Source: Clostridia bacterium
GTDB lineage: Bacteria; Bacillota; Clostridia; Oscillospirales; Acutalibacteraceae
Direction of reading: 5' to 3'
DNA length: 64,000 bases
NCBI GenBank assembly: GCA_044426265.1
Contig: JAWXUR010000003.1
Location: forward strand, 714-64,713
The translations under genes and the position numbers were made by a program. Below the pieces are notes generated by a model that made no database searches, was not told where the DNA came from, and saw only the letters and a program-made list of their open reading frames with translations. Below, piece by piece: positions 3,877-58,586 of the stretch; the stretch's first letter is position 1, and the number at the start of each line of letters is the position of its first letter.

Positions 3877-4178
3877 TGTGGACTTACGCATCATAGTTTG
3901 AAACTTAAAAATTTTTCAATTAGTTTTATATTAATGGGAAATTGAGGATTATAGGAAAAAATCCAAGATTTTTTTTAGATTTTAACCTTTTTTTTGCAAA
4001 GCAAAAATTACAATCGGAGTTCTAGCTCCCTTTTGAGGGAGATGTCAGCGAAGCTGACTGAGGGTTTGACCCTTAATTTTCCATTCTCAATTCTCAATTT
4101 TCCATTATTATTTTTTATTATTTTCTTAAGTTCCCAGCTATGGACTTACGCATTTGCCGAAGGCAAATTGTACCGCCC
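3877..4178. repeat. Mosaic hairpin-array repeat locus R1
   Basis: Chain of short perfect hairpins: TTTTTGC-AAA-GCAAAAA, GTCAGC-GAA-GCTGAC, AGGGT-TTG-ACCCT, TTTGCC-GAA-GGCAAA+TTGTACCGCC. Contains a 7-bp periodic tract at 4075..4109. The direct repeat TGGACTTACGCAT occurs at 3879..3891 and 4141..4153. Modules recur near 17670, 31004 and 51385. Confidence 0.8.
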
Positions 4179-6767: not shown

Positions 6768-6844
6768 CTTCTAAATTTTCTCCTTATATCCAAGTGGATT
6801 TTTGCTAATACGTTGATACTATCATTTTATAGTAGTGGTAATGG

Positions 6845-7103
6845 GTAGGGTTCGCTTTCGCTCACAATGAAAAATTAAGGTTTTTTCTTTTGTTTTATGG
6901 CTTGATTTATTAGTTAATCTCGTCTACGCTCGCCGTTAGTGTTTTGTGTCAACTAAAATATTACATATCTATCGGTTATTTTGCTTAAGTTGCTTGCATT
7001 GGAATTGTCCCTCGTTTATAATGTGTGCAACGCACGCCACCACAATTTTTCATTTTTCATTCTTAATTTTTCATTGTGAGCGATAGCGAACCTTAGCCGC
7101 TAC
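6845..7103. repeat. MITE-like element R2 bounded by 31-bp terminal inverted repeats
   Basis: Left arm 6849..6879 (GGTTCGCTTTCGCTCACAATGAAAAATTAAG) matches the reverse complement of right arm 7062..7092 at 30 of 31 positions. Outer ends are GTAG (6845) and CTAC (7103). Internal modules recur inverted at 17419..17500 and 42790..42900. Confidence 0.85.
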
Positions 7104-15735: not shown

Positions 15736-16320
15736 TTATAACTCCTTAACTGTGTTTTCGAAATCTTCGAAACTTATGAAACTGTTTAATATTTTTATCA
15801 TTGACGAACTCGACATTCTTTCTGGTAAGTCGAGAGTTTGAAGCAATTTTTTACGTTTTTCTTGGCTGTTTGGTCTGCCGCTTAAACCATGCTCGTAAAG
15901 ATCAGAATTTTTGATTAGTTTTCTTTCGATTTGCTCGTTTTCTTCGCAAAAAACGCCAGCTTTTTCAAAGGCTTCGAGAATAATTTTCTCGCTTATTCCC
16001 TCAACACCGAGTTTTCCCTCTTTTGAGGCTTCTGTTTTGCGTTTTTCTTTGCCGAAGATGTCTGGCATATAAACATGGGTGATTTGTTTGGTTGGTACGC
16101 TGGAATTTAGAAAGTTTCGAATCACAAAGCCAGCTGAGTCGCTGTCTGTTAAAACGACTATGCCATTTTTTTGAGCTAGTGAACGAATTAGTTTTTGTTT
16201 TTCTTTGTTTTTAAATATGCCGAAGCCGTCTGTTTTTATGATAACCGCATCGATGATGTTTGAGAGCTTTATTATGTCATATTTCCCCTCTACTATCACT
16301 GCTTGTTTTATTTTTATCAT
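15736..16320 (-). CDS. Toprim-domain protein (RNase M5-like)
   Basis: 194 aa. Toprim-like VIVEGKYD...VLTDSDSAG. Overlaps the holA stop by 4 nt. Confidence 0.7.
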
Positions 16321-17357
16321 ACTCTTTCACCATTTGAAATGAGCATCAATTGCACTAAGAGTTGCTCGATTACAATATTTGAAGCTTGAGCGGTGTTTTT
16401 AAGTTTGAAATCTGCTTGTGCTATTGCCTCTAAGCAGCGTCTAAGATCGGAAATATCCATTCTTGATGAATCTCTTGCTCCGTTTGTTAGGGCGAAAACT
16501 CTGTTTTTATAGTTAAAATCGTCTTTCAACGCCTCTGCTCTATCGCCACACAGCACTGAAACTTTTGCTCTGTACATATCGACAAAACCGCTTGTTATTG
16601 ATCCTAAAATATATTCTGGCTCTGTTTTTTGTCTAAGCAAGGTATCGAGGACTTCATAAGCTTTTTCGAAGTTTTTGGCTAGTAGCGCACGTATCAAGTA
16701 CGAAATCTTGGTGTCAAGACTTTTGACTGCGACTTCGTCAATGTGTTTTTTTGTTATCTCGCCAGTTTGAGCGTAGCTGCACACCTTGCTCAATTCATTT
16801 ATTAACACGTTGAAATCATCACCCACCACTGTTACGAGGTAATTCGCCATTTGAGGTGAGAGGACTAAGCCTTTTTTCTTTGCCGATGAAATGAGCGGAT
16901 TTATGAGATCTTTGCCAGTTCTTTTGTTTAGTACGCAAACAGCTCCATATTTATCGAAAAGTTCGATTGCTTTTTTCGCCGTACGCAGTGAGAGGTTGTT
17001 TTTTCTTTCAACGAAGATTAAAACTGTGCTTTGTGGAAGATTTTCGAAGTAGGTTTTCATTGTCTTGTGGTCTTTTTCTGGCATTGATTCAAGCTTGAAA
17101 TCTTCAACTAAAATGCAGCGTTTTTCTGCCATGAATGGCATGAGGTCTGCGGTTTGAAGTATCTTTTGAAGGTCTGTTTCTTTGCCGTCGAATTTATCAA
17201 AATTCATATCTTTGAAAGTGTCACCAAGGCATTTATCGCAGATTGTGTTTGCGTATAGTTGTTTTAGGTAGCTTTCATCGCCATAGATTAGATAGGCGGA
17301 TTTGAATTCTTTTGTTTTGATGTGCGCTTTTAATTGTTTTTCATCGAATTTTGGCAA
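16317..17357 (-). CDS. holA: DNA polymerase III delta subunit
   Basis: 346 aa. Typical HolA N-terminus (AYLIYGDESYL) and size. Confidence 0.82.
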   Translation of the reverse strand: MPKFDEKQLKAHIKTKEFKSAYLIYGDESYLKQLYANTICDKCLGDTFKDMNFDKFDGKETDLQKILQTADLMPFMAEKRCILVEDFKLESMPEKDHKTMKTYFENLPQSTVLIFVERKNNLSLRTAKKAIELFDKYGAVCVLNKRTGKDLINPLISSAKKKGLVLSPQMANYLVTVVGDDFNVLINELSKVCSYAQTGEITKKHIDEVAVKSLDTKISYLIRALLAKNFEKAYEVLDTLLRQKTEPEYILGSITSGFVDMYRAKVSVLCGDRAEALKDDFNYKNRVFALTNGARDSSRMDISDLRRCLEAIAQADFKLKNTAQASNIVIEQLLVQLMLISNGERV

Positions 17358-17418
17358 GATGTCACCTCTTTTTTTATTTTGTTGTTTTGGTTAGTTATTT
17401 TGTTTGATTTTGGTTTGT

Positions 17419-17745
17419 GGTACAGTTCGCTTCGCTCATAATGAAGAATTAAAAATGAAGAATGAAAAATTGTGGTGGCGTGCTTTGCACGCATTATAAA
17501 CGTAGGGGTGACCTGTGGTCGCCAGAAAATTTCATCAAACCTACTGGCGACCGCAGGTCGCCCCTACAATTTACCTATTGTAGGGACATGGCTTGCCATG
17601 TCCGCAAGTATAGTACAAACTCAGTTTCGGACATGGCAAGCCATGTCCCTACGTTGTGAGTGATGTTTTTTCCTTAAGTTCCCGAGTATGAGATGCGATT
17701 TTTCATTTTTCATTCTTCATTTTTCATTGCAAGCGCTAGCGAGCT
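17419..17745. repeat. Composite repeat R5: MITE-like frame carrying two REPIN-like doublets
   Basis: Outer arms (AGTTCGCTTCGCTCATAATGAAGAAT / ATTCTTCATTTTTCATTGCAAGCGCTAGCGAGCT) are imperfect inverted repeats with 7-bp periodic tracts. Inside are doublets at 17502..17567 and 17580..17652. About 210 bp recurs inverted at 51369..51600. The right end abuts the stop codon of the LicD-fusion gene. Confidence 0.88.
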
Positions 17746-19594
17746 AAATGTATTCTCCTAAATCCAGTTGGACTATATTGTGCCCTGAAAATCTTTGTGT
17801 ATATGGTAGTAAGTCCATGTAATTTTCGCCGTATAGCTTGGTTAAATATGGTTTTTCGTGGGCGGAAATTTTTATTTTACGTCCCTCGAAATTGGTTTCT
17901 TTTAGCTCTTGTAGCCACTCGATTGGCAGCGCACCTTTGAGCATATTGTTGCCCACTCCGTCAATGACAAATTTGCTGTTTTTCTTATTTTTATAAACGC
18001 AAAGAACCTTGTCAAAGCACCAGTGATAAAATTTGAATGGCAAGATTTTTAAAAATGGAAGTGCTATTTTTGAAAGTGTTTTTCTGTTTTGTTTTTTTGC
18101 TTCGTCAAGCCAAATCATGTTTAAAATCAGCTTGAAAATTCGAACAAAAAATATGTGAAGTTTTTGCATTTTTGAATTGTTTGAAGTCTTATCAAAAACC
18201 AAGATGTCAACGAAAATTCCGTTGTGCATTTTTGGGAAGTTGATTGATGAATCAGTTGCAAAAACAGTGCCGTTCAAGCGGATTTTATCGAAGATATAAT
18301 GTGAGTTTTCATCTGTTTTGTTGCACTGGAAAAACATTGACTCTGGCAGATTTTCGGCGCAGATTTTTCTGAATTTATCATAATCTTCACGCATCATGCC
18401 AAGGTCGATATCATCGTCCCATGGAATGAAACCGCCGTGTCTTACTGCTCCTAAAAATGAGCCACCAACAAGGAAAACTTCGAGCTCATTTTCTTTGCAA
18501 ATCCTTAAAATTTCATCGACAATATTCATTTCAAGAGCCTTGATTTTTTCGAGTTTGCCCTCATAAACGTCAACAAAAAACTCACCTTGATAGTCGATAT
18601 CCATTAAATAACTTGCGGTTTTTTTGATTGCTGTGCTAAACTTTATGTTTGGCTTAATGCCTAAATGCTCAGCTTTTTTGCAGCTTAAAACTTCATAGCT
18701 GTTTTGCGAATTTTCAGCGTTAAAATTACAGTTCACTTTGATGTTTTTATCGGCGAATGTTTCGAGCAAAATCGACTTTAATTCGTGGATTGTGAAGCTG
18801 TGGCTGTTAAGATTATAACTCGAACCAAACTCGCCTTTTTGAGCTAAGGTTAAAATCGCTATGATTAAATCGCTAACATAAATAGCGCCATAGTGAGTTG
18901 CACTATCATCTGCGTTAAAAGTTAGCTCGTTTGTTTTTATAAAATCTTCAATTATTTGATTTATGTCAAGCTTTGTTTTGGTTTTTACGCAAGGGGCAAA
19001 AACTGCGTTATGCCTTAAAATTAGGCTTGCGGTTTCGGCTTGTTTGAAATTTTGTTTTAATGTGTTTTCAAGGCTTAACATGAGTTTGCCTCGGGTGAAA
19101 GTTTCATCTTTTTTCGACTGTGAAAGCAGTTCATTCTCTGCTAAGGCGCAAATATTTTCTTCATGTGGCTTATTAAAATCGAACTGCTCACACAAGATGA
19201 ATTTATTTTCGTTTTCACTTGCGTATTTTACCCAATTTTCGAGGTCTTTTTCTTTGGCTTTAAATTCAGTTTCGTTTTGATATAAGTTTAAGTTTGTAAA
19301 GTAAAAGTAAAAAGCGGAGCTAATTTGAGTTTTGTTTTTTGTGAAATCTTCAAAGTTTTTATATGTTTTGATGCCGCCAAGTGGAAAACTTTCATCGCTT
19401 AGCTCACTTGAGCAAATAACGCTGCATTTTTCCCCAACGCTGGCGAGGATACGAGCCATGTACGAGCAAAAAGATGGCTCATCAAAAACTAGCACTATCT
19501 CTTTATTTTCGTAAGTTTTTAGATTTATTTTTTCATGCTTGAGCGCCTTTAAAATCTCATTAATTTCATCTTGAAAATATAAATTCATTGCCAC
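17744..19594 (-). CDS. LicD-family phosphotransferase fused to an N-terminal degenerate epimerase/SDR-like domain
   Basis: 616 aa. The C-terminal half has the LicD pattern (FLVGGSFLGAVRHGGFIPWDDDIDLGM). The N-terminal half resembles extended SDRs (YVSDLIIAILTLAQKGEFGSSYNL) but has no GxxGxxG. Confidence 0.78.
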   Translation of the reverse strand: MAMNLYFQDEINEILKALKHEKINLKTYENKEIVLVFDEPSFCSYMARILASVGEKCSVICSSELSDESFPLGGIKTYKNFEDFTKNKTQISSAFYFYFTNLNLYQNETEFKAKEKDLENWVKYASENENKFILCEQFDFNKPHEENICALAENELLSQSKKDETFTRGKLMLSLENTLKQNFKQAETASLILRHNAVFAPCVKTKTKLDINQIIEDFIKTNELTFNADDSATHYGAIYVSDLIIAILTLAQKGEFGSSYNLNSHSFTIHELKSILLETFADKNIKVNCNFNAENSQNSYEVLSCKKAEHLGIKPNIKFSTAIKKTASYLMDIDYQGEFFVDVYEGKLEKIKALEMNIVDEILRICKENELEVFLVGGSFLGAVRHGGFIPWDDDIDLGMMREDYDKFRKICAENLPESMFFQCNKTDENSHYIFDKIRLNGTVFATDSSINFPKMHNGIFVDILVFDKTSNNSKMQKLHIFFVRIFKLILNMIWLDEAKKQNRKTLSKIALPFLKILPFKFYHWCFDKVLCVYKNKKNSKFVIDGVGNNMLKGALPIEWLQELKETNFEGRKIKISAHEKPYLTKLYGENYMDLLPYTQRFSGHNIVQLDLGEYI

Positions 19595-20540: not shown

Positions 20541-20628
20541 GGCGGTACAATTTTTGCGGTTAACCGCAAAAAGGTACGATCACCACGACATGAACTCCGT
20601 GATTGATTTGCTCAACGAGCAATCGAAA
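20541..20628. repeat. GTAC-flanked palindrome (member 3) plus two further hairpins
   Basis: GGCGGTACAA-TTTTTGCGG-TTAA-CCGCAAAAA-GGTACGA, then ATCAC...GTGAT and GATTTGCTC-AAC-GAGCAATC. Confidence 0.8.
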
Positions 20629-30517: not shown

Positions 30518-31170
30518 GGTACAGTTTTTCTGTTATGCGTTTTTTATGGTACAGTTTTTGGCGGTAAACCGCAAAAAACGTGGTTTCGAGGGAGTGCGGT
30601 GGTTTTTGTTTCGTGAAATCACGAAACACGAATTTTTTCAGTTTCCATGGCATATGTATCGGTTAGTTTTTTTGTTTCTAGGTAGCTTTGATGTGTTGGG
30701 ACGTTTCGGCGAGCGTTTAATTTTGGCTTTGCCAAAATTATTGCGTGCCTTGCACGCAATTGCTGCGGCTTCGCCGCAGCAAAACGCTCGCCGAAACTGC
30801 ACCGCTAACTGACGATTACAATCCACAAAACAGTCGGCTGTCGCCGTCTGTTTTGCTAGTTTCATAAATCAAGCCGTAAAAATCGCTTTGCTCTTTTACT
30901 ACTAACGCAAATGCGATGTTATTTTCTCTTGGTTTGATTTGTAGGGTAATATAGTGCATTTAGTTTAGTTTTACGTTTATTTGAATCGCATTTGCTTTGC
31001 TTTAATTCTCAATTCTCAATTTTCAATTCTCCATTTTCTTGTGGTTTTCGCTCGTTGCGACGAGCGACTTAAGGCTCTGCCTTAAGAATCTGCAATTTTT
31101 CGTGAAAAATTGAGTAAAGCTTTGCTTGCTTTTTTTCTTTTTTCTTTTCTTTTTTTATTTTTTCTTTTTT
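30518..31170. repeat. Largest hairpin-array repeat locus R8 (~650 bp)
   Basis: GTAC palindrome (GGTACAG-TTTTTGGCGG-TAAA-CCGCAAAAAA), then GTTTCGTGA-AA-TCACGAAAC. A 16-bp outer stem encloses three hairpins at 30703..30797. Next come the AAAACAG..CTGTTTT hairpin, the CGCAAATGCGAT module, a 7-bp periodic tract (31004..31038), a partial hairpin chain (31046..31129) and a T/C tract (31130..31170) abutting the alaS stop. Confidence 0.88.
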
Positions 31171-33887: not shown

Positions 33888-34086
33888 AATTTTACTCAAT
33901 TTTTTTAAAAAATTGCGGTTTCTTAAGGCAGAGCCTTAAGGCGCTCGCCGCAGCGAGCGAAATCTCCTATCGTCAAAAAAATCAGGAGGATAGACAAAAA
34001 TTTGTCCATTGGACAATTTTTTGTCGTAAGGAACCCTATTAAGGGGTTCCTTGATTTTGCCAAAGGCAAAACAATACAGATTTGCC
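33888..34086. repeat. Hairpin-chain element, full copy H1, inside the alaS 5' leader
   Basis: At least six consecutive stem-loops: CAATTTTT/AAAAATTG, CTTAAGGC-AGA-GCCTTAAG, CGCTCGC-CGCA-GCGAGCG, TTTGTCCA/TGGACAA, GGAACCC-TATTAA-GGGGTTCC and TTTTGCC-AAA-GGCAAAA. Collinear with 38392..38597 (inverted) and 40926..41290. Confidence 0.88.
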
Positions 34087-36196: not shown

Positions 36197-36239
36197 GGTC
36201 GTACTTTTTTTGCGGCTTGCCGCAAAAAACTGTACCGCC
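36197..36239. repeat. GTAC-flanked palindrome (member 5)
   Basis: GGTCGTAC-TTTTTTTGCGGC-TT-GCCGCAAAAAA-CTGTACCGCC, preceded by GTAGCT. Confidence 0.85.
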
Positions 36240-38391: not shown

Positions 38392-38597
38392 GTAGCGGTG
38401 AGATTGCTTTGTTTTGCCTTCGGCAAAATCAAGAAACCCCCGCCGAGGGTTTCTTACGCAAAAATGTCCACCGGACACTTTTGCTATCTTCCTGCGGTTT
38501 TTTGGCGATAAGGTATTTCGTTCGCTGCGGCGAACGCCCAAAGGCTCTGCCTTTGGAAACCGCAATTTTTCGAGAAAAATTGAGTAAAGCTTTGCTC
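38392..38597. repeat. Hairpin-chain element, full copy H2 (inverted relative to H1)
   Basis: Begins GTAGCGGTGAG. Same module order as H1 but with changed, still-complementary stems: CCAAAGGC-TCT-GCCTTTGG, AGAAACCC...GGGTTTCT and GTTCGC-TGCG-GCGAAC. Ends 24 nt from the stop of the lipid-kinase gene. Confidence 0.88.
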
Positions 38598-38620
38598 ATT
38601 ATATTGCTTTAAAATTCTTC

Positions 38621-42459: not shown

Positions 42460-43262
42460 AAAGTTGGACGTAAGGAGCACCGCAGGTGCGGATATCCCAC
42501 TTTATAAAAGACTAAGGCAAAGAAGACAAAGAACAAAACAGTCGGGGTGTGCCAGATTTTTAGGCTGCAAGGCAGGCTAAAAATATTCCCCACCGACGGC
42601 GATAAAAATAAAATGTCCTAAATGCAGTGAGTTCCCCAAGAACGCATTTTGGTTACTTTTGTGCGAGCAAAAGTTACGCTGTGTTTTGTGTTAATTAAAA
42701 TGTTACAATAGCTATCGAGGTATTTTGTTTAAAACAAGGCGGAGGATTGAGCAATACTTTCGTATTGCGATTGACGACAACGAAGTTTTAAGCAAAATAA
42801 CCGATAGATATGTAATATTTTAGTTGACACAAAACACTAACGGCGAGCGTAGACGAGGCTTTCTTATAAATCAAGCTATAAAACAATAAGATTAATTTCT
42901 TTATATTACCTAATATTCGTTTACAGGTCACCAAAATAGCCAGCTGTCGCTGTCTGTTTTGGTTATGCCCATAAATCAGTCCGTAAAAAATCGCTTTGCT
43001 CTTTTTACTACTAACGCAAATGCGATATCGTTTTTCCTTTACATTGCTGTTTAGGTTACGATACCGCATTTAGTTAAATTGTTCTATTTTTTTTCGCATT
43101 TGCTTTTTTCATTTTTAAGTTTTTTATTTGTTTTGAAATTGCTGGGGATTTCGCTTGCTGCTGCAAGCGCCTTAAGGCTCTGCCTTAAGAATCCGCAATT
43201 TTTCGTGAAAAATTGAGTAAAGCTTTGCTTGCTTTTTTCTTTTTCTTTTTATTTTTTCTTAT
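42460..43262. repeat. Hairpin-array repeat locus R14 (~800 bp)
   Basis: Contains GCACC-GCA-GGTGC and a TTTTTAGGCTGC/GCAGGCTAAAAA hairpin. Carries the 48-nt core (42735..42782) on its own stem, modules inverted relative to 6890..6990, the CGCAAATGCGAT module, a partial hairpin chain (43148..43232) and a T/C tract (43233..43262) abutting a gene stop. Confidence 0.82.
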
Positions 43263-49934: not shown

Positions 49935-49977
49935 GGCGTACTTTTTTTGGCGGTTAACCGCCAAAAAACTGTACCCC
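49935..49977. repeat. GTAC-flanked palindrome (member 6) between convergent genes
   Basis: GGCGTAC-TTTTTTTGGCGG-TTAA-CCGCCAAAAAA-CTGTACCCC. Confidence 0.85.
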
Positions 49978-50048: not shown

Positions 50049-51131
50049 TTATTTGTTTTCAGCTTCAAATTTAGCCATGAACTCAACTAATTTTTCAACG
50101 CCTTCAATTGGCATTGCGTTATAAATTGAAGCTCTCATGCCGCCAACACTGCGGTGACCTTTAAGGTTGATGAATCCCAAAGCGTCTGATTCTTTGATGA
50201 ATTTTGCATTGAGTTCGTCACTCTCTGTTACGAAAGGAACGTTCATGAGTGATCTATCTTCAGCCACAACTGTGCCTTTGAACATTTCACTTGAATCTAA
50301 GAAATCATAAAGAATTTTAGCTTTTTTGATGTTGTGCTCTTGCATTTTTTCAAGACCACCTAAGTTTTTAATCCACTCTAAAACTAATTTACAAATGTAA
50401 ATAGTGTAGCATGGAGGTGTGTTATACATTGAGCCGTTATCAGCGTGGATTTTAAGATCTAACATTGTTGGAGTGCCTTCACGAGCGTTTCCAAGCATAT
50501 CTTCACGAACAATCATGATAACCAAACCAGCTGGTGCGATATTTTTTTGAGCGCCGCCATAAACAACAGCGAACTTTGAAACATCGATTGGCTCAGATAA
50601 GAAACATGATGAAACGTCTGCAACGAGAGGAAGCTCGCCAACGTCTGGAATGTCTTTATAAACTGTGCCATAAATTGTGTTGTTCATGCAGATATATGCA
50701 TAGTCTGCATCTTTTCTAAAATCGTCTTTAGTTGTTTTTGGAATGTAGCTGAAAGTTTTGTCAGCTGATGAAGCAACAGCTTTTGCATCGCCGAATTTTG
50801 CAGCTTCTTGCCATGCTTTTTTAGCCCATTGACCAGTGATGATATAGTCAGCTTTTTTGCTGCCATTCATGAAGTTCATTGGAATTGCTGCAAATTGAGT
50901 TGAAGCTCCGCCTTGTAAAAAGAGAACTTTATAGTTTTCAGGGATATTCATAAGCTCACGAATGAGAGCTTCAGCTGAATCGATGATGCCTTGATAAACT
51001 TTTGATCTATGTGACATCTCCATTACAGATTGACCGCTACCTTCGTAGTCGAGCATTTCACTTGCTGCTTTTTCGAGAACTTCAAGTGGTAACATTGATG
51101 GGCCTGCTGAAAAATTATATACTCTTGCCAT
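50049..51131 (-). CDS. serC: Phosphoserine aminotransferase
   Basis: 360 aa. YNFSAGPSMLP, SHRSK and the GGAQKN (PLP lysine) motifs. Confidence 0.92.
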   Translation of the reverse strand: MARVYNFSAGPSMLPLEVLEKAASEMLDYEGSGQSVMEMSHRSKVYQGIIDSAEALIRELMNIPENYKVLFLQGGASTQFAAIPMNFMNGSKKADYIITGQWAKKAWQEAAKFGDAKAVASSADKTFSYIPKTTKDDFRKDADYAYICMNNTIYGTVYKDIPDVGELPLVADVSSCFLSEPIDVSKFAVVYGGAQKNIAPAGLVIMIVREDMLGNAREGTPTMLDLKIHADNGSMYNTPPCYTIYICKLVLEWIKNLGGLEKMQEHNIKKAKILYDFLDSSEMFKGTVVAEDRSLMNVPFVTESDELNAKFIKESDALGFINLKGHRSVGGMRASIYNAMPIEGVEKLVEFMAKFEAENK

Positions 51132-51368: not shown

Positions 51369-51965
51369 GCGTAGGGGTTGACCTCATAGCTGGGAACTTA
51401 AATGAAAAACCATCAATCACAACGTAGGGACATGGCTTGCCATGTCAGAAACTTGGTTTGTGCTATACTTGCGGACATGGCAAGCCATGTCCCTACAATA
51501 GGAAAATTGTAGGGGCGACCTGTGGTCGCCAGTAGGTTTGATGAAATTTTCTGGCGACCTCAGGTCGCCCCTACACTAACAAATAAATTTTTCAAATCTC
51601 TTAAGTTACTGGCAATAAAATCGCCCACTACGTTTTTAAAGGAATTTCATAAAGCAATCCGTAAAAAATCGCTTTGCTCTTTTTACTACTAACGCAAATG
51701 CGATATCGTTTTTTCCTTTAGATTGCTCTTTAGGAAACGATACCGCATTTAGTTAGTTTGTTTTATTTTTTTATCGCATTTGCTTGTTGCTAATTTTCAA
51801 TTTTCAATTCTCAATTTTCAATTTTCTTGGGGTGTTTCGCTTGCTGCTGCAAGCGACTTAAGGCTCTGCCTTAAGAATCTGCAATTTTTCGTGAAAAATT
51901 GAGTAAAGCTTTGCTTGCTTTTTTCTTTTTTATTTTTATTTTTTATTTTTCTTTTTATTCTTTAC
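51369..51965. repeat. Composite repeat R16
   Basis: REPIN-like doublets at 51424..51496 and 51509..51574, inverted relative to 17502..17652. Also the CGCAAATGCGAT module (51655..51765), a 7-bp periodic tract (51792..51826), a partial hairpin chain (51835..51918) and a T/C tract (51919..51965) abutting a gene stop. Confidence 0.88.
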
Positions 51966-51977
51966 CTATTCTTCTAA

Positions 51978-52424
51978 TTATTCAGCTGAAAAAATCCCCT
52001 CAACAGCATCAACAATCATATCTTTAAGATAATTAAGACCATATTTGATAAGACCAACCCAAATGTTTGATTCATGATCAACATTTTCATTCGAAGTAAC
52101 ATAAGTTATTTCGCCATCTTCTTCAAATATTTCCATTGTGCAAGTGAATGAACAGTTGATTTCTTGTTTAACTGTAACTGTGTAAGTGCCGTCACCATTG
52201 TCATCATAAATAGTGTCTAACAAGTCGTAACAACAGCTCATGTCTAAGCCTTCAACCCTATAGATATAATATTTGGCATACACTCTAATTTCACTATCAA
52301 GTGTTGAAAGTTGAGTTGTTGTGAGATCGTCCATTGAAACTGCGGTTGAAGTTGCAGTTGCTGGAATAACGAGTGAGAACATCATGATTGCAGCGAGTGC
52401 AAATGAGATTAATTTTTTAGTCAT
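51978..52424 (-). CDS. Small secreted Cys-containing protein, unknown family (cassette copy 1)
   Basis: 148 aa from ATG 52424 (RBS GAAGGAGG; the track TTG start is unlikely). Has a signal peptide (MTKKLISFALAAIMMFSLVIPATA), four Cys and a DDNGDG loop. Confidence 0.72.
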   Translation of the reverse strand: MTKKLISFALAAIMMFSLVIPATATSTAVSMDDLTTTQLSTLDSEIRVYAKYYIYRVEGLDMSCCYDLLDTIYDDNGDGTYTVTVKQEINCSFTCTMEIFEEDGEITYVTSNENVDHESNIWVGLIKYGLNYLKDMIVDAVEGIFSAE

Positions 52425-52444
52425 TTTTCTTTCCTCCTTCAAAC

Positions 52445-54181
52445 TTAAGCGTCAAAATCGATGCCGTCAAAATCATCTGTGTATGTCCAAGTAACATCGC
52501 TAACGAAATATCTGTCAAACACACTTTGAATGTTGTCAAGAGCAAGTTCGTTATCTTCACGAGGCATTACGTAGAAGTTTTCAACTGTGATTCCGTCAAC
52601 ATAGCGGCAGTATAAGCCGTAAACTGGGATATCGTACATAAGAGAATCTTCATAGTTACCCATACCCATATAGAAAATCTTTGTGATTTCTGGATAAACT
52701 TCTGCTGCAGATTGTGCGAAGATGCATTCTAAAACACCTGGAAGATCGAGGTCACTTGTAACACCTTCTCTGTATTTCACAACAAAGTTTTTGATTGTTA
52801 CGTCAGTTACATAGTGAATTTCAGAGAAGTCTGTTAAGCCGTTTGTGCAGCCAACTACTGCGCTTGCCATGTAAACATTGTTAGCTTCGATATTTTCGAT
52901 AACAACGTTTGAGAGGCTGCCAACAGTTTCTGTGCTGTAACTCATTCTATAACCGAGCCAGATAAGAAGTGGAGATAAAATGCCGTCCATTTGAATGTCA
53001 TGAACATAAACGTCTTCAAGGTTAGAGCCATCAACGCTTTCTATAGCTATACCAGCGTAACCACCAGCTGTTCCAGCTTTGAAGAATTGACAGTCATAAA
53101 CTTCAATGTTGCCGATTCCTGTTGCTGTAGGTGTACCGATTTTGAAACAGTTCGCATTTGATATGATTTCACAGTTATAAAATTCATAGTTGTAACAACC
53201 GCCATCATCATATGATTTAATGCTCATGCCGTCATCTGCTGCTGAAATAAAGCAGTCATGCATAACAACGTTGTTGCAGTCTAAGTAGTCAACGCCGTCA
53301 CCATTTTCAGTGTGTAAGTTATTATTTAAGATAGTATATTCAACTAAAATGTTATCTGTTTCTTCAATCCACATAACGAACCCGCCAGAGTTATAAAGCT
53401 CAATGTTTTCAATAGTTAAGCCATCAACATTGCTAGTTCTAATGAGTTGAACTCTTGAGCCAGTTTTATATGTGATATATTCTCTCCAAGCTAAGTTATA
53501 TTCTTTAAGATTGAAGCTTGTTATGTCTGAAGCTAAAAGTGATAAGCCATCACCAGCGTAAGATTCATTCATGTAAGTTTGACCTTGACCATCGATAGTA
53601 CCAGGGCCTTCGATAGTTACATTATCACAGTTATAAACTTTGATAACAGCAGATGATAAACCACTACTTCCATCCACTTCACTGTTAAGCAACATTTGAT
53701 CATAATCAATGCATTGAAGTGTTGTATTAGTACCAACTTTTAAAGTAACATTTGATTGCATAACGATTGTTACGATTTCGAATGTTGTTTCAGCGCCATA
53801 GTTTGAAATGTACACTGTACCGCCACCAGCTGCGTTTGCTACAGTGATAGCTTCATTGATAGCTGCTGCATTTTCTTTACCTGTGTTGTTTTCTGAAAGA
53901 TCATAACCATCAGCCACAACGTCGATGAATGTATAACCGATAGCCGCTGCCTCTGCTTTAGCTTCTGCTTTTTCATCAGCATAGCTCTCAGCGTAAGTGA
54001 GATAATCATCATAAGGGATATTATCCACATAACCACCAGTTACTGTGTAGTCAGTCGTGTACATATCATCAAAGATTGATTCATCAACAGCTGCGCTGCT
54101 TGTTGTGAAAATTCCAAGTGATGATGTGGTTGTCATTACAACAACTAAAATGAGTTTGATAACGTTTTGAAATGTTTGCAT
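52445..54181 (-). CDS. Secreted right-handed beta-helix protein, GH28/pectate-lyase-3-like glycosidase (cassette copy 1)
   Basis: 578 aa with a signal peptide. N-terminal cap pattern NTGKENAAAINEAITVANAAGGGTVY and GH28-like acidic motifs ENGDGVD and AADDGMSIKS. Confidence 0.78.
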   Translation of the reverse strand: MQTFQNVIKLILVVVMTTTSSLGIFTTSSAAVDESIFDDMYTTDYTVTGGYVDNIPYDDYLTYAESYADEKAEAKAEAAAIGYTFIDVVADGYDLSENNTGKENAAAINEAITVANAAGGGTVYISNYGAETTFEIVTIVMQSNVTLKVGTNTTLQCIDYDQMLLNSEVDGSSGLSSAVIKVYNCDNVTIEGPGTIDGQGQTYMNESYAGDGLSLLASDITSFNLKEYNLAWREYITYKTGSRVQLIRTSNVDGLTIENIELYNSGGFVMWIEETDNILVEYTILNNNLHTENGDGVDYLDCNNVVMHDCFISAADDGMSIKSYDDGGCYNYEFYNCEIISNANCFKIGTPTATGIGNIEVYDCQFFKAGTAGGYAGIAIESVDGSNLEDVYVHDIQMDGILSPLLIWLGYRMSYSTETVGSLSNVVIENIEANNVYMASAVVGCTNGLTDFSEIHYVTDVTIKNFVVKYREGVTSDLDLPGVLECIFAQSAAEVYPEITKIFYMGMGNYEDSLMYDIPVYGLYCRYVDGITVENFYVMPREDNELALDNIQSVFDRYFVSDVTWTYTDDFDGIDFDA

Positions 54182-54288
54182 AAATTTGTTCCTCCACTTT
54201 TTTAATATTTTCTAAATCAACTAAGCATGAATTTCACAACTTCATATTGTTTTAACGAAAAATCACCTCTAGTTTAAAATATATTTAA

Positions 54289-54317
54289 ATTATAGCATAT
54301 ACAAAAACAATTGTAAA
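54289..54317 (-). promoter_or_regulatory. Promoter of cassette copy 1
   Basis: On the minus strand: TTTACA (54317..54312), 17 nt, TGcTATAAT (-10 at 54294..54289). Confidence 0.6.
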
Positions 54318-54391
54318 TCTATTTTTATTGTTTTTTTGTTTATTTTTCCTTTTTTTTGAAATTTTAATGGTGAAAATAAATATAAAATTAC

Positions 54392-54419
54392 AAAAAGAGC
54401 CCCTCTTTCGAGAAGCTCT
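54392..54419 (-). terminator. Intrinsic terminator of cassette copy 2
   Basis: On the minus strand: AGAGCUUCUC-GAAA-GAGGGGCUCU (10 bp including two G:U pairs) followed by U5. Confidence 0.75.
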
Positions 54420-54445
54420 TTAATTATTGGATTTTTTTACACTAA

Positions 54446-54892
54446 TTATTCAGCTGAGAAAATTCCCTCAACAGCGTCAACAATCATATCTTTAACCATG
54501 TTTAAGCCGTACTTGATAAGTGCAATCCAAATGTTTGATTCGTGATCTACTTCGTAATCAGAAGTAACATAAGTGATTTCACCATCTTCTTCAAAAAGTT
54601 CAAGAGTACAAGTGTAAGTACAGTTGATTTCTTGTTTGATAGTTACTGTGTAAGTGCCGTCACCATTGTCGTCATAGATAGTGTCTAACAAGTCATAACA
54701 GCAGCTCATGTCTAAGCCTTCAACTCTATAAATATAATATTTTGCTTCTGCAACAAGTGCGGTGTTAATTGATGTAAGAGTTGCTGCGTCAACATCGTCC
54801 ATTGAAATTGTTGTTTGTGCTGCAGTTGCTGGAATAACTAGTGAGAACATCATGATTGCAGCGAGTGCAAATGAGATTAATTTTTTAGTCAT
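54446..54892 (-). CDS. Small secreted Cys-containing protein, unknown family (cassette copy 2)
   Basis: Paralog of 51978..52424 with an identical signal peptide. ATG 54892 follows GAAGGAGG. Confidence 0.72.
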   Translation of the reverse strand: MTKKLISFALAAIMMFSLVIPATAAQTTISMDDVDAATLTSINTALVAEAKYYIYRVEGLDMSCCYDLLDTIYDDNGDGTYTVTIKQEINCTYTCTLELFEEDGEITYVTSDYEVDHESNIWIALIKYGLNMVKDMIVDAVEGIFSAE

Positions 54893-54912
54893 TTTTCTTT
54901 CCTCCTTCAAAC

Positions 54913-56649
54913 TTAAGCGTCAAAATCGATGCCGTCAAAATCATCTGTGTATGTCCAACTTACATCGCTAACGAAATATCTATCAAATACGTTTTGGATA
55001 TTGTCAAGAGGAAGTTCGTTATCTTCACGAGGCATTACATAGAAGTTTTCAACTGTGATTCCGTCAACATAGCGGCAATATAAGCCGTAAACTGGAATAT
55101 CATACATGAGAGCATCTTCATAGTTACCCATACCCATATAGAAAATCTTGGTAATTTCTGGATATACGTCTGGTGCAGATTGAGCGAAGATACATTCTAA
55201 AACACCTGGAAGTGTTGGATCACTTGTTACGCCCTCTCTATATTTCACAACGAAGTTTCTAATTGTTACGTCAGTTACATAGTGAATTTCTGAGAAGTCT
55301 GTTAAGCCGTTTGTGCAGCCTACTACTGCGCTTGCTAAGTCAACGTTATTAGCTTCGATATTTTCGATAACAACATTTGTTAAGCTACCAACTGTTTCTG
55401 TGCTGTAGCTCATTCTATAGCCGAGCCAGATAAGAAGTGGAGATAAGATGCCGTCCATTTGAATGTCATGAACATAAACATCTTCAAGGTTAGAGCCATC
55501 AACACTTTCAATTGCTATACCAGCGTAACCGCCCATTGTGCCGCCTTTGAAGAATTGGCAATCATAAACTTCAATGTTTCCAATTCCAGTTGCTGTAGGT
55601 GTACCGATTTTAAAGCAGTTAGCATATGAAATGATTTCGCAGTTATAAAATTCATAATTATAGCAGCCGCCATTATCATATGATTTAATACTCATGCCGT
55701 CATCAGCAGCTGAAATAAAGCAGTCATGCATAACAACATTATTGCAGTCTAAGTAGTCAACACCATCACCATTTTCAGTGTGTAAGTTATTATTTAAGAT
55801 AGTGTATTCAACTAAAATGTTATCTGTTTCTTCAATCCACATAACGAAGTTAGCTGCGTTATAAAGATCGATGTTTTCAATTGTTAAGCCGTCAACATTG
55901 CTAGTTCTAATGAGTTGAACTCTTGAACCTGTGTGGTAACAAATATATTGACGCCAAGCTAAGTTGTATTCTTTAAGATTGAATGTTGTTACGTCTGAAG
56001 CTAAGAGTGATAAGCCATCGCCCATGTAAGAATCATTCATGTAAGTTGTGCCTTGACCATCGATTGTTCCAGGGCCTTCAAGTTTAACATTGTCGCAGTT
56101 ATAAATCTTAATAACTCCGCCTGATAAGCCAGAGCTACCATAAAGTTCGTTATTTGCGAGCATTTGATCATAATCAATGCATTGAAGTGTTGTGTTCATA
56201 CCAACTTTTAAAATAACATTTGATTGCATAACGATTGTTACGATTTCATATGTTGTTTCAGCACCATAGTTTGAAACGTACACAGTACCGCCGCCAGCTG
56301 CGTTTGCTGCTGTGATAGCTAAGTTGATAGCTGCTGCATTTTCTATGCCAGTGTTGTCAACTGCAATGTCATAACCTTCAGCAACAACGTCGATGAAAGT
56401 ATAGCCGATAGCCGCTGCCTCTGCTTTAGCTTCTGCTTTTTCATCAGCATAGCTGTCTGCGTATGTTAAATAATCATCATAAGGAATTTCATTAACATAA
56501 CCACCAGTTACTGTGTAATCAGATGTGTACATATCATCAAAGATTGATTCATCAACAGCTGCGCTGCTTGAAGTGAAAATCCCCAGTGATGATGTGGTTG
56601 TTATCACAACAACCAAAATGAGTTTGATAACGTTTTGAAATGTTTGCAT
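54913..56649 (-). CDS. Secreted right-handed beta-helix protein, GH28/pectate-lyase-3-like glycosidase (cassette copy 2)
   Basis: 578 aa, collinear with 52445..54181 without indels. Roughly nine residues in ten are identical by eye. Confidence 0.78.
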   Translation of the reverse strand: MQTFQNVIKLILVVVITTTSSLGIFTSSSAAVDESIFDDMYTSDYTVTGGYVNEIPYDDYLTYADSYADEKAEAKAEAAAIGYTFIDVVAEGYDIAVDNTGIENAAAINLAITAANAAGGGTVYVSNYGAETTYEIVTIVMQSNVILKVGMNTTLQCIDYDQMLANNELYGSSGLSGGVIKIYNCDNVKLEGPGTIDGQGTTYMNDSYMGDGLSLLASDVTTFNLKEYNLAWRQYICYHTGSRVQLIRTSNVDGLTIENIDLYNAANFVMWIEETDNILVEYTILNNNLHTENGDGVDYLDCNNVVMHDCFISAADDGMSIKSYDNGGCYNYEFYNCEIISYANCFKIGTPTATGIGNIEVYDCQFFKGGTMGGYAGIAIESVDGSNLEDVYVHDIQMDGILSPLLIWLGYRMSYSTETVGSLTNVVIENIEANNVDLASAVVGCTNGLTDFSEIHYVTDVTIRNFVVKYREGVTSDPTLPGVLECIFAQSAPDVYPEITKIFYMGMGNYEDALMYDIPVYGLYCRYVDGITVENFYVMPREDNELPLDNIQNVFDRYFVSDVSWTYTDDFDGIDFDA

Positions 56650-56779
56650 AAATTTGTTCCTCCACTTTTTTTAATATTTTCTAGTTTTAACTAAACTTGA
56701 ACTCCCCCAAATTAAACACATAATTCTAAATTATAATTATTTTAATAAAAAGCTCACACTTAGTTTAAATTACATTTAA

Positions 56780-56808
56780 AGTATAGCATAATAGCAAACA
56801 ATTGTAAA
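56780..56808 (-). promoter_or_regulatory. Promoter of cassette copy 2
   Basis: On the minus strand: TTTACA (56808..56803), 17 nt, TGcTATACT (-10 at 56785..56780). Confidence 0.58.
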
Positions 56809-56898
56809 GTTATTTTAATTGTTTTTTACCTTGATTTTATTATTTTTTTGTGAATATTCACCAAAACCGAGTTTTTTGTTGTTTTATATTTCAAATTT

Positions 56899-56939
56899 GG
56901 GGTCTCATCTTTTTTTCGCTTGCGAAAAAACTGTACGGC
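56899..56939. repeat. GTAC-flanked palindrome (member 7, degenerate left flank)
   Basis: GGGGTCTCATC-TTTTTTTCGC-TT-GCGAAAAAA-CTGTACGGC. Confidence 0.75.
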
Positions 56940-58541: not shown

Positions 58542-58586
58542 TTTTAGTACTTTTTTTGCGGTTAACCGCAAAAAACTGTACTAAAA
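58542..58586. repeat. GTAC-flanked palindrome (member 8, nearly perfect 45-bp palindrome)
   Basis: TTTTAGTAC-TTTTTTTGCGG-TTAA-CCGCAAAAAA-CTGTACTAAAA. Confidence 0.88.

Follow-up and report, generated by a model that had tools for sequence, protein, structure and literature searches.

The window, a 64-kb stretch of chromosomal DNA (~36% GC) from a Clostridia metagenome-assembled genome (MAG), features two intergenic loci, each of which carries two tandem inverted doublets, units A and B, whose arms start with GTAG. The eight arms are repetitive extragenic palindromes (REPs) of the GTAG super-family, organized at each locus as two side-by-side head-to-head dimers, much like a small cluster of the bacterial interspersed mosaic element (BIME) type. 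We consider it likely, with a probability of roughly 80%, that A and B belong among the REP/REPIN elements of group 4 / subclass 2.4, where REPINs are REP doublets forming hairpins, and group 4 and subclass 2.4 are classes of REP-associated tyrosine transposases (RAYTs). The assignment draws on the structure of the arms, on the occurrence of the same arms in other genomes and on their linkage to RAYT genes there.

REPs are non-autonomous, and each arm folds into a hairpin on single-stranded DNA. RAYTs, also called TnpA-REP, are single-strand nuclease-ligases of the HuH/Y1 type, which recognise the hairpin and the GTAG foot and cut and rejoin DNA beside the foot. By RAYT action, further intergenic sites can acquire a copy of a REP or REPIN. 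Hairpins of units A and B would be substrates of group 4 / subclass 2.4 RAYTs. The two loci are organized as follows.

17502-17567: REPIN A at locus 1, two inverted A-type REP arms with GTAG feet outward, 66 nt in total
17502-17523: A arm 1, GTAGGGGTGACCTGTGGTCGCC
17546-17567: A arm 2, GGCGACCGCAGGTCGCCCCTAC
17580-17652: REPIN B at locus 1, two inverted B-type REP arms with GTAG feet outward, 73 nt in total
17580-17603: B arm 1
17629-17652: B arm 2
17653-17689: tail at locus 1, GTTGTGAGTGATG...CTTAAGTTCCCGAGTATGAG, co-duplicated with A-B; similarity to locus 2 fades here
51371-51389, plus strand: extra degenerate GTAG-footed arm, GTAGGGGTTGACCTCATAG, without an intact hairpin, read off the sequence
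51390-51423: tail, locus 2 copy
51424-51496: REPIN B at locus 2, inverted copy of 17580-17652
51509-51574: REPIN A at locus 2, inverted copy of 17502-17567; the outer GTAG foot marks the exact end of the homology

Unit A reads GTAGGGGTGACC-TGT-GGTCGCC, a 22-nt spacer, and GGCGACC-GCA-GGTCGCCCCTAC, and each of its arms features a 7-bp stem (GGYGACC/GGTCGCC) and a 3-nt loop. Unit B reads GTAGGGACATGGC-TT-GCCATGTCC, a 25-nt spacer, and GGACATGGC-AA-GCCATGTCCCTAC, with a 9-bp stem (GGACATGGC) and a 2-nt loop in each arm. This is exactly the layout of two tandem inverted GTAG doublets described in an original prediction made from the sequence alone, which had also rightly claimed that the A/B junction (CCCTACAAT-N6-ATTGTAGGG) is self-complementary and able to pair. 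All eight arms start with the foot that defines the GTAG super-family, their stem-loops are short and GC-rich like those of other members, and both loci are extragenic, being located between open reading frames (ORFs). The feet read GTAG-GGG or GTAG-GGA, which places consecutive G-C pairs at the bottom of the stem, beside GTAG.

Each of the 23-24-nt arm patterns has four matches in the window and none in 100 shuffles, and GTAGGG is found 15 times, as opposed to 4.6 times expected; short motifs for counting the arms on both strands are GTAGGGACATGGC and GTAGGGGYGACC. The combination of GTAG and a GC-rich hairpin occurs only in these eight arms, at the two loci, in 64 kb. Folded as single-stranded DNA, each locus forms two long hairpins (-63.7 and -61.5 kcal/mol, z = -14.9 and -14.0).

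The inverted recurrence of the units at 51424-51496 and 51509-51574, put at about nine identical bases in ten by the original prediction, is borne out by blastn, which aligns locus 1 to locus 2 with 94.2% identity over 171 nt (17502-17672 vs 51574-51404). The repeat is longer than had been thought, as it includes the tail and spans 171-185 nt; a repeat search returned inverted arms of 185 nt (17502-17686 and 51390-51574) that are 91% identical. The duplicated module consists of A, B and a 20-35-nt tail as one unit, and within the 64 kb the REPINs are seen replicated solely as this composite, in two copies. Within 17502-17652, the copies differ at eight positions, two of which are located in stems, two in hairpin loops, three in the B spacer and one in the junction. 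The tail segment CTTAAGTTCCCAGCTATG recurs at 4125-4142, and the degenerate arm at 51371-51389, on the outer margin of the locus 2 cluster, resembles an A-like REP that has decayed.

The arms are widespread in other genomes. The B arm was sought in one genome per GTDB species (596 Gb) with 21 specified bases, a search in which ~0.3 chance matches are expected. The matches listed, which do not include the source MAG, comprise more than 112 stretches from at least eight phyla and ~54 genomes, as judged by record titles. Hosts among these matches are Abditibacteriota/Armatimonadota, Bacteroidota (including Rhodothermales and Ignavibacteria), Chloroflexota, Cyanobacteriota and Clostridia (at least seven MAGs, with a RAYT present in one), as well as one MAG each of Treponemataceae, Peribacteria and Alphaproteobacteria. 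Because one palindromic arm matches its own reverse complement, architectures were classified by exact feet; the listed matches feature 87 single arms, 37 head-to-head dimers and 20 “double-foot” palindromes of 28 nt. The dimers range from 47 to 216 nt (median 85), compared with 73 nt in the window. No B-type arm was matched in IMG/VR.

The A arm has matches in IMG/VR (56 stretches) and among metagenomes (more than 120 stretches, some of them from the human gut). We also observed that related IMG/VR viral contigs with 41-44% GC, which form a family (L121, L123, L125, L136, L137, L141, L144, L148, L156, L166, L170, L171 and L173), and the metagenome contig L293 (position 5610) share one A-type REP at a conserved locus. 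In the Oscillospiraceae MAG stretch L067, A, B and a third REP type are mixed within one intergenic cluster, which shows the same tail-to-head CCCCTAC-N-GTAGGGAC adjacency as the window. Hetero-dimers and mixed clusters of GTAGGG REP types are present in L067 (3900-3965 and 4139-4206) and in L119/L146 (near 3962). They pair a B arm with a GGGCGATTC arm, or an A arm with a GGGCGCATG arm, which implies that arms of different types can join in one doublet.

RAYT-like genes accompany both types of arm. Among the B-arm matches listed, three stretches carry such a gene. In L093, an Abditibacterium MAG, two inverted B REPs precisely enclose an ORF of 174 aa, whose TAG stop falls inside the GTAG foot. 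In L117, the complete Abditibacteriota genome AP024152, a RAYT-like gene (75% identical) is found beside a B REP. In L036 (Oscillospiraceae MAG, CAYJLB010000022.1, 4028-4552), the middle portion of the RAYT coding sequence is enclosed by a B-type doublet in frame. A REPs are tied to RAYT-like genes in four additional stretches. L284 features one A REP in frame (“NGRPPVAPTG”) and another at the 3' end of the gene, with the stop codon inside GTAG; the A REP is also in frame in L290 (“YGRPLVAPT”) and L251 (“YGRPMVAPT”), and in L215 A REPs lie upstream of the RAYT-like gene. In two unrelated RAYT genes, one associated with B and one with A, the TAG stop coincides with the TAG of the foot of the downstream REP (L093, 619-650; L284, ~2218-2250).

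Six of the RAYT-like proteins share the motifs YDY..GAYF.T, PNHxH, WQ..(F/Y)(W/Y)(D/E)HI(I/V)R and Y-x3-NP. The two that were scanned, L093 and L036, match the NCBIfam model NF047646, “REP-associated tyrosine transposase” (E values of 4e-18 and 8e-17), and the L036 protein also matches Pfam Y1_Tnp. In a PDB search with L284 and L093, the sole match was E. coli TnpA-REP (4ER8). RAYTs accompanying these REPs are only ~35-40% identical to each other.

According to PMC6006769, REPs of TnpA-REP subclass 2.4 are long, with three G-C pairs at the stem bottom and “double foot” forms, and this subclass uniquely features in-frame REPs in tnpA, between its HuH motif and its Y motif. The subclass, which the same paper equates with RAYT group 4, is scattered across phyla. 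PMC5581495 places group 4 in 17 bacterial classes and describes its flanking 16-mers as only modestly repeated. The subclass features are found here partly in the window (G-C pairs at the stem bottom) and partly in other genomes (double-foot B palindromes and in-frame REPs, the latter counted in L036, L284, L290 and L251). The external RAYTs may accordingly be placed in subclass 2.4 on the basis of shared features rather than phylogeny.

The original prediction correctly took the host to be a low-GC Gram-positive-like organism, in agreement with its Clostridia origin. The view that REPs would be unusual in such a genome was overstated, since the same B-type REP is present in at least seven Clostridia MAGs, one with a RAYT, and group 4 / subclass 2.4 is described as scattered over 17 bacterial classes (PMC5581495, PMC6006769).

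As had been noted, no transposase gene is located in the window. A tblastn search for a Y1 transposase in the 64 kb was negative, and the best hit of the RAYT profile (E = 0.18) falls away from both loci. The flanking of a RAYT by the same REPs, typical of REPtrons, is absent from the window and is found elsewhere for both B (L093, L117 and L036) and A (L284, L290, L251 and L215). We infer that a RAYT located elsewhere in the genome, or in its ancestry, made these copies. Current mobilisation of A and B by a resident RAYT is plausible, with chances a little short of even.

Several observations weigh against the assignment to RAYT-made REP/REPIN elements. The 64 kb hold no RAYT, and a resident enzyme is unproven. 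In L036, a 1-nt frameshift at an A6 run precedes the catalytic Y-x3-NP motif immediately, which could reflect a pseudogene, an assembly error or programmed slippage. Scores for NF047646 (61-66 bits for L093 and L036) are under the curated cutoff of 80, and certain REP-bearing MAG contigs may be mis-binned. Only two loci are known in the window, and they are copies of one composite that includes a non-REP tail. Moreover, the insertion at locus 1, described below, is bounded by inverted repeats other than the GTAG feet. Of the REP/REPIN architecture of RAYT systems claimed by the original prediction, the structure stands and the same arms are tied to RAYT genes elsewhere, while RAYT-mediated transposition of a REPIN is shown for neither locus.

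Locus 1 is flanked on one side by the 3' end of a LicD-family gene (17744-19594, minus strand) and on the other by the start of holA (16317-17357, minus strand). In two related lineages from the same sample series, whose HolA proteins are 86% (L297/L298) and 85% (L299-L301) identical to that of the window, LicD is directly followed by holA, the two genes being either 12 nt apart or overlapping. Since LicD abuts holA in both, the whole ~328-nt block carrying A-B is, by alignment, an insertion in this lineage. The block and related repeats feature the following segments.

17420-17747: extra block of ~328 nt, absent from the two related lineages in the alignment
17425-17470: left arm of the outer inverted repeat X, GTTCGCTTCGCTC followed by an AATGAAR heptamer array; pairs with 17698-17744
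17471-17501: small GC-hairpin module, TGTGGTGGCGTGCTTTGCACGCATTATAAAC, between the X left arm and REPIN A
17698-17744: right arm of the outer inverted repeat X, an ATTTTTC heptamer array followed by GCAAGCGCTAGCGAGC
6838-7103: second X copy, with arms at 6838-6879 and 7062-7103 and outer ends GTAG...CTAC

The insertion removes the last ~19 codons of LicD. The gene now ends ...LDLGEYI* on a TAG stop (17744-17746) provided by the right arm of X, and LicD of the relatives continues ...LDLGKYIFKQTQNEKISKNDLRGELY* (L297, 1083-3032, and L299, 1069-3009, compared with 17744-19594 of the window). A diverged remnant of the old LicD tail persists at 17358-17419, between the insert and the holA ribosome-binding site. 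The X block carries terminal inverted repeats (TIRs; 17425-17470 and 17698-17744) and no ORF of note, and no convincing target-site duplication was detected around it in the alignment with the empty sites. The second X copy has a different internal module (6890-6988), which is repeated in inverted orientation at 42788-42886 with 94% identity. A homologue of the GC-hairpin module is located at 7013-7045 in that copy, and homology halts exactly at the GTAG of A. At locus 2, the A-B-tail module is present without X repeats; relatives carrying serC (86-87% identity) have different neighbours, and synteny is lost around this locus.

The original prediction had proposed to look for presence/absence polymorphism in relatives. 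Such polymorphism exists at locus 1, but the missing unit is the 328-nt mosaic rather than a single REPIN. The mobile unit at locus 1 may thus be a mosaic resembling a MITE (a transposable element of the miniature inverted-repeat type), and the REPINs are one module within a mosaic of intergenic repeats. At this locus, the A-B-tail composite occupies the cargo position within a larger element that inverted repeats delimit. Because only two copies of A, B and a non-REP tail are available, REPIN-by-REPIN transposition is not demonstrated. The duplication of the composite and the X-bounded block suggest that the latest moves probably took place as part of the repeat mosaic, and the last placements of both copies were probably composite moves or recombination events. 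The most recent moves would have occurred via recombination or MITE-type transposition of the mosaic, not of single REPINs.

These features raise the possibility, which we regard as real yet doubtful, that the REP doublets are passive cargo or relics, moved by the X-bounded MITE-like mosaic or by recombination among intergenic repeats, with no active RAYT. The block missing in relatives (17420-17747) ends at X repeats and not at GTAG feet, the second X copy (6838-7103) holds different cargo at the same position, the duplicated unit takes in a non-REP tail, and the window is crowded with other repeat families, copies of which are 88-94% identical. Conversely, the occurrence of A-B-tail without X at locus 2 indicates that the module is not tied to X, and no clear target-site duplication flanks the X block. 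Homology on the A side, both between the loci and between the X copies, halts exactly at the GTAG foot, as expected of a RAYT-type cut junction. Passive carriage is in any case compatible with a RAYT origin of the REPs themselves. A plain segmental duplication of an intergenic fragment, in which the hairpins are incidental and immobile, would account for the finding of only two copies in 64 kb with identical A-B order, junction and tail. We consider it quite improbable, because the copies are inverted, 34 kb apart and set in unrelated flanks, the unit measures only ~171-185 nt and stops abruptly at a GTAG foot, the insertion at locus 1 is missing from relatives, and the arms match REPs of dozens of unrelated genomes, where they are linked to RAYT genes.

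The hairpins, however they arrived, might also be retained because they serve the host. Between LicD and holA and upstream of serC, they could for example stabilise transcript 3' ends, attenuate or terminate transcription, or be bound by nucleoid proteins or gyrase, as has been proposed for REPs of E. coli. Such roles, which do not exclude a REP/REPIN nature, seem rather unlikely. Each locus is flanked by genes of the same direction, one ending ahead of it and the next starting beyond it; copies differ at 2 of 82 stem and foot positions vs 6 of 69 others, a contrast that is not statistically significant, and one stem change (17509) yields a G-T pair. However, T-tracts are missing, no terminator-like sites occur at locus 1, the two copies (n = 2) are in opposite orientation to transcription, and the relatives lack the element at locus 1. 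Least probable of all, to the point of being negligible, is the derivation of the doublets from a decayed RAYT gene. It is suggested by the in-frame position of subclass 2.4 REP pairs in tnpA and by the L036 doublet that brackets the central RAYT part. However, the spacers measure 22 and 25 nt, compared with ~105 nt of conserved coding sequence in L036, and the RAYT profile finds nothing at either locus, its best score lying elsewhere in the window, so that a gene remnant is effectively ruled out.

Other candidate identities were discarded alongside. Ends of IS200/IS605 elements, in which tnpA/tnpB lie between subterminal hairpins, do not fit, as there is no coding capacity between or beside the hairpins and no Y1 match in the window. 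An intrinsic terminator is not supported either, with zero terminator-like sites in 17300-17800 and no T-run. Readings as a CRISPR repeat or as an integron attC site were both rejected.

At locus 2, serC (50049-51131, minus strand) lies downstream of the repeats, and a duplicated pair of genes, ORF154 and GH28, lies upstream of them. The duplication is in tandem (51974-54441 and 54442-56909), has a period of 2468 nt and is 85-94% identical in the segments compared; the unit 51974-54441, which adjoins locus 2, comprises the 154-aa ORF and a GH28 glycoside hydrolase. HolA and SerC are identical to MFI3140834.1 and MFI3140859.1, two proteins of a Clostridia MAG at NCBI; Ruminococcus, Acutalibacteraceae, Faecalibacterium and Oscillospiraceae MAGs follow as the next named relatives. 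In blastn and tblastn comparisons of the window with the comparison loci, matches were found at the REP level only, plus a 66% serC match in L293, a contig that stops at the start of serC. Logan short-read contigs carrying holA or serC end within the repeats, at 17476/17480 and 51446, and the two copies would already suffice to cause such breaks. The serC-bearing Logan contig ends in a palindrome of a different family (49946), described below.

At the Rfam gathering threshold, a scan of the window revealed one tRNA only, and nothing at either locus. Blastn of a plasmid collection with locus 1 gave no match, and the small ORFs spanning the REPs have no counterpart in the protein collection. The A-B junction pattern had zero matches among metagenome contigs, i.e., the composite was not found there. 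A full-text literature search for GTAGGGACATGGC retrieved no relevant paper, and one unrelated eukaryotic paper only.

Other intergenic repeat families, unrelated to GTAG REPs and with copies 81-93% identical, populate the window. A stack of small hairpins, ~95 nt in length, is found at 31046-31140, 38516-38610, 43149-43243 and 51835-51929, and in inverted orientation near 33908 and 40923. A composite element of ~297 nt (51648-51944) has counterparts at 42970-43257 and 31003-31162. Tandem heptamer arrays (AATTCTC, ATTTTTC or AATTTTC) occur at 4075-4099, 7045-7075, 17440-17470, 17698-17728, 31004-31038 and 51792-51826, and those around locus 1 make up the arms of X. For each array checked, a small GC hairpin (TTCGCT..CGCTC or ..GCTGC..GCGA) lies no more than a few tens of nt away. 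Another family consists of palindromes with the structure GTAC-T7-GCGGTTAACCGC-A7-GTAC (20545-20579, 30548-30581, 36201-36235, 49938-49968 and 58547-58581), which are intergenic or located near gene ends and resemble bidirectional terminators.

The data add an uncultured Clostridia lineage of the gut or rumen type to the range of group 4 / subclass 2.4, a known REP/RAYT type. They provide a concrete case in which a REP-bearing repeat block has entered the 3' end of LicD and redrawn its C-terminus, and the repeats explain the breaks of short-read assemblies of the organism at these points. A broader point, which reaches beyond this window alone, is the presence of near-identical REP hairpins across many phyla alongside distantly related RAYTs. 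It is conceivable, though we think it unlikely, that a GTAG REP “alphabet”, with the B stem GGACATGGC and the A stem GGGCGACC as two of its letters, is shared nearly base-for-base across at least eight phyla, although the RAYTs that accompany it are only ~35-40% identical and contain these hairpins in frame in their genes, and that two such REPINs were captured in this lineage as cargo of an unrelated element. If this were true, a hairpin of 20-28 nt would be subject to extreme constraint at the DNA level, or to repeated horizontal transfer. REPs could then spread within, and possibly between, genomes lacking a resident RAYT, by a second, RAYT-independent route.

As to known systems, the ~328-nt block resembles MITEs such as Nezha, Correia/NEMIS and RUP in having TIRs of ~45 nt, a non-coding sequence and a variable interior. 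We know of no cognate transposase for it. In contrast to MITEs, no target-site duplication was identified, and the REP doublets themselves are not TIR elements. With E. coli BIMEs the clusters share the presence of more than one REP type, alternating orientation, conserved linkers and a location amid other short repeat modules; however, BIME linkers have no relation to the modules that accompany the REPs here, which are heptamer arrays, hairpins of the TTCGCT..CGCTC form and the inverted repeats of X.

GTAG REPs are known as singles, as head-to-head, tail-to-tail and head-to-tail dimers 20-100 bp apart, and as clusters, with several families per genome; hosts include Proteobacteria, Cyanobacteria, Chloroflexi and the Planctomycetes-Verrucomicrobia-Chlamydiae group, and Firmicutes are not mentioned (PMC3733652). 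Units A and B share with REPINs (PMC3116915) and with head-to-head dimers (PMC3733652) the inverted REPs, the outward GTAG feet, the short spacer and a size of 66-73 nt. As in REPINs (PMC3116915), the doublet folds as one long hairpin and is kept as a unit between copies. In contrast, REPIN populations of Pseudomonas and E. coli count tens to hundreds of copies, with one flanked RAYT per genome (PMC3116915), compared with two copies here, each of which is part of a composite of two REPINs with a tail.

The closest likeness is to subclass 2.4 / group 4, although the exact A and B stem sequences are not quoted in the text read. The host differs, being a member of the Clostridia (Oscillospirales-like), a group not named for the subclass in the passages searched of PMC6006769 and PMC5581495, and no RAYT accompanies the REPs within 64 kb. 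The shared features are a GTAG foot placed directly before G-C pairs, a patchy distribution across phyla and a low copy number.

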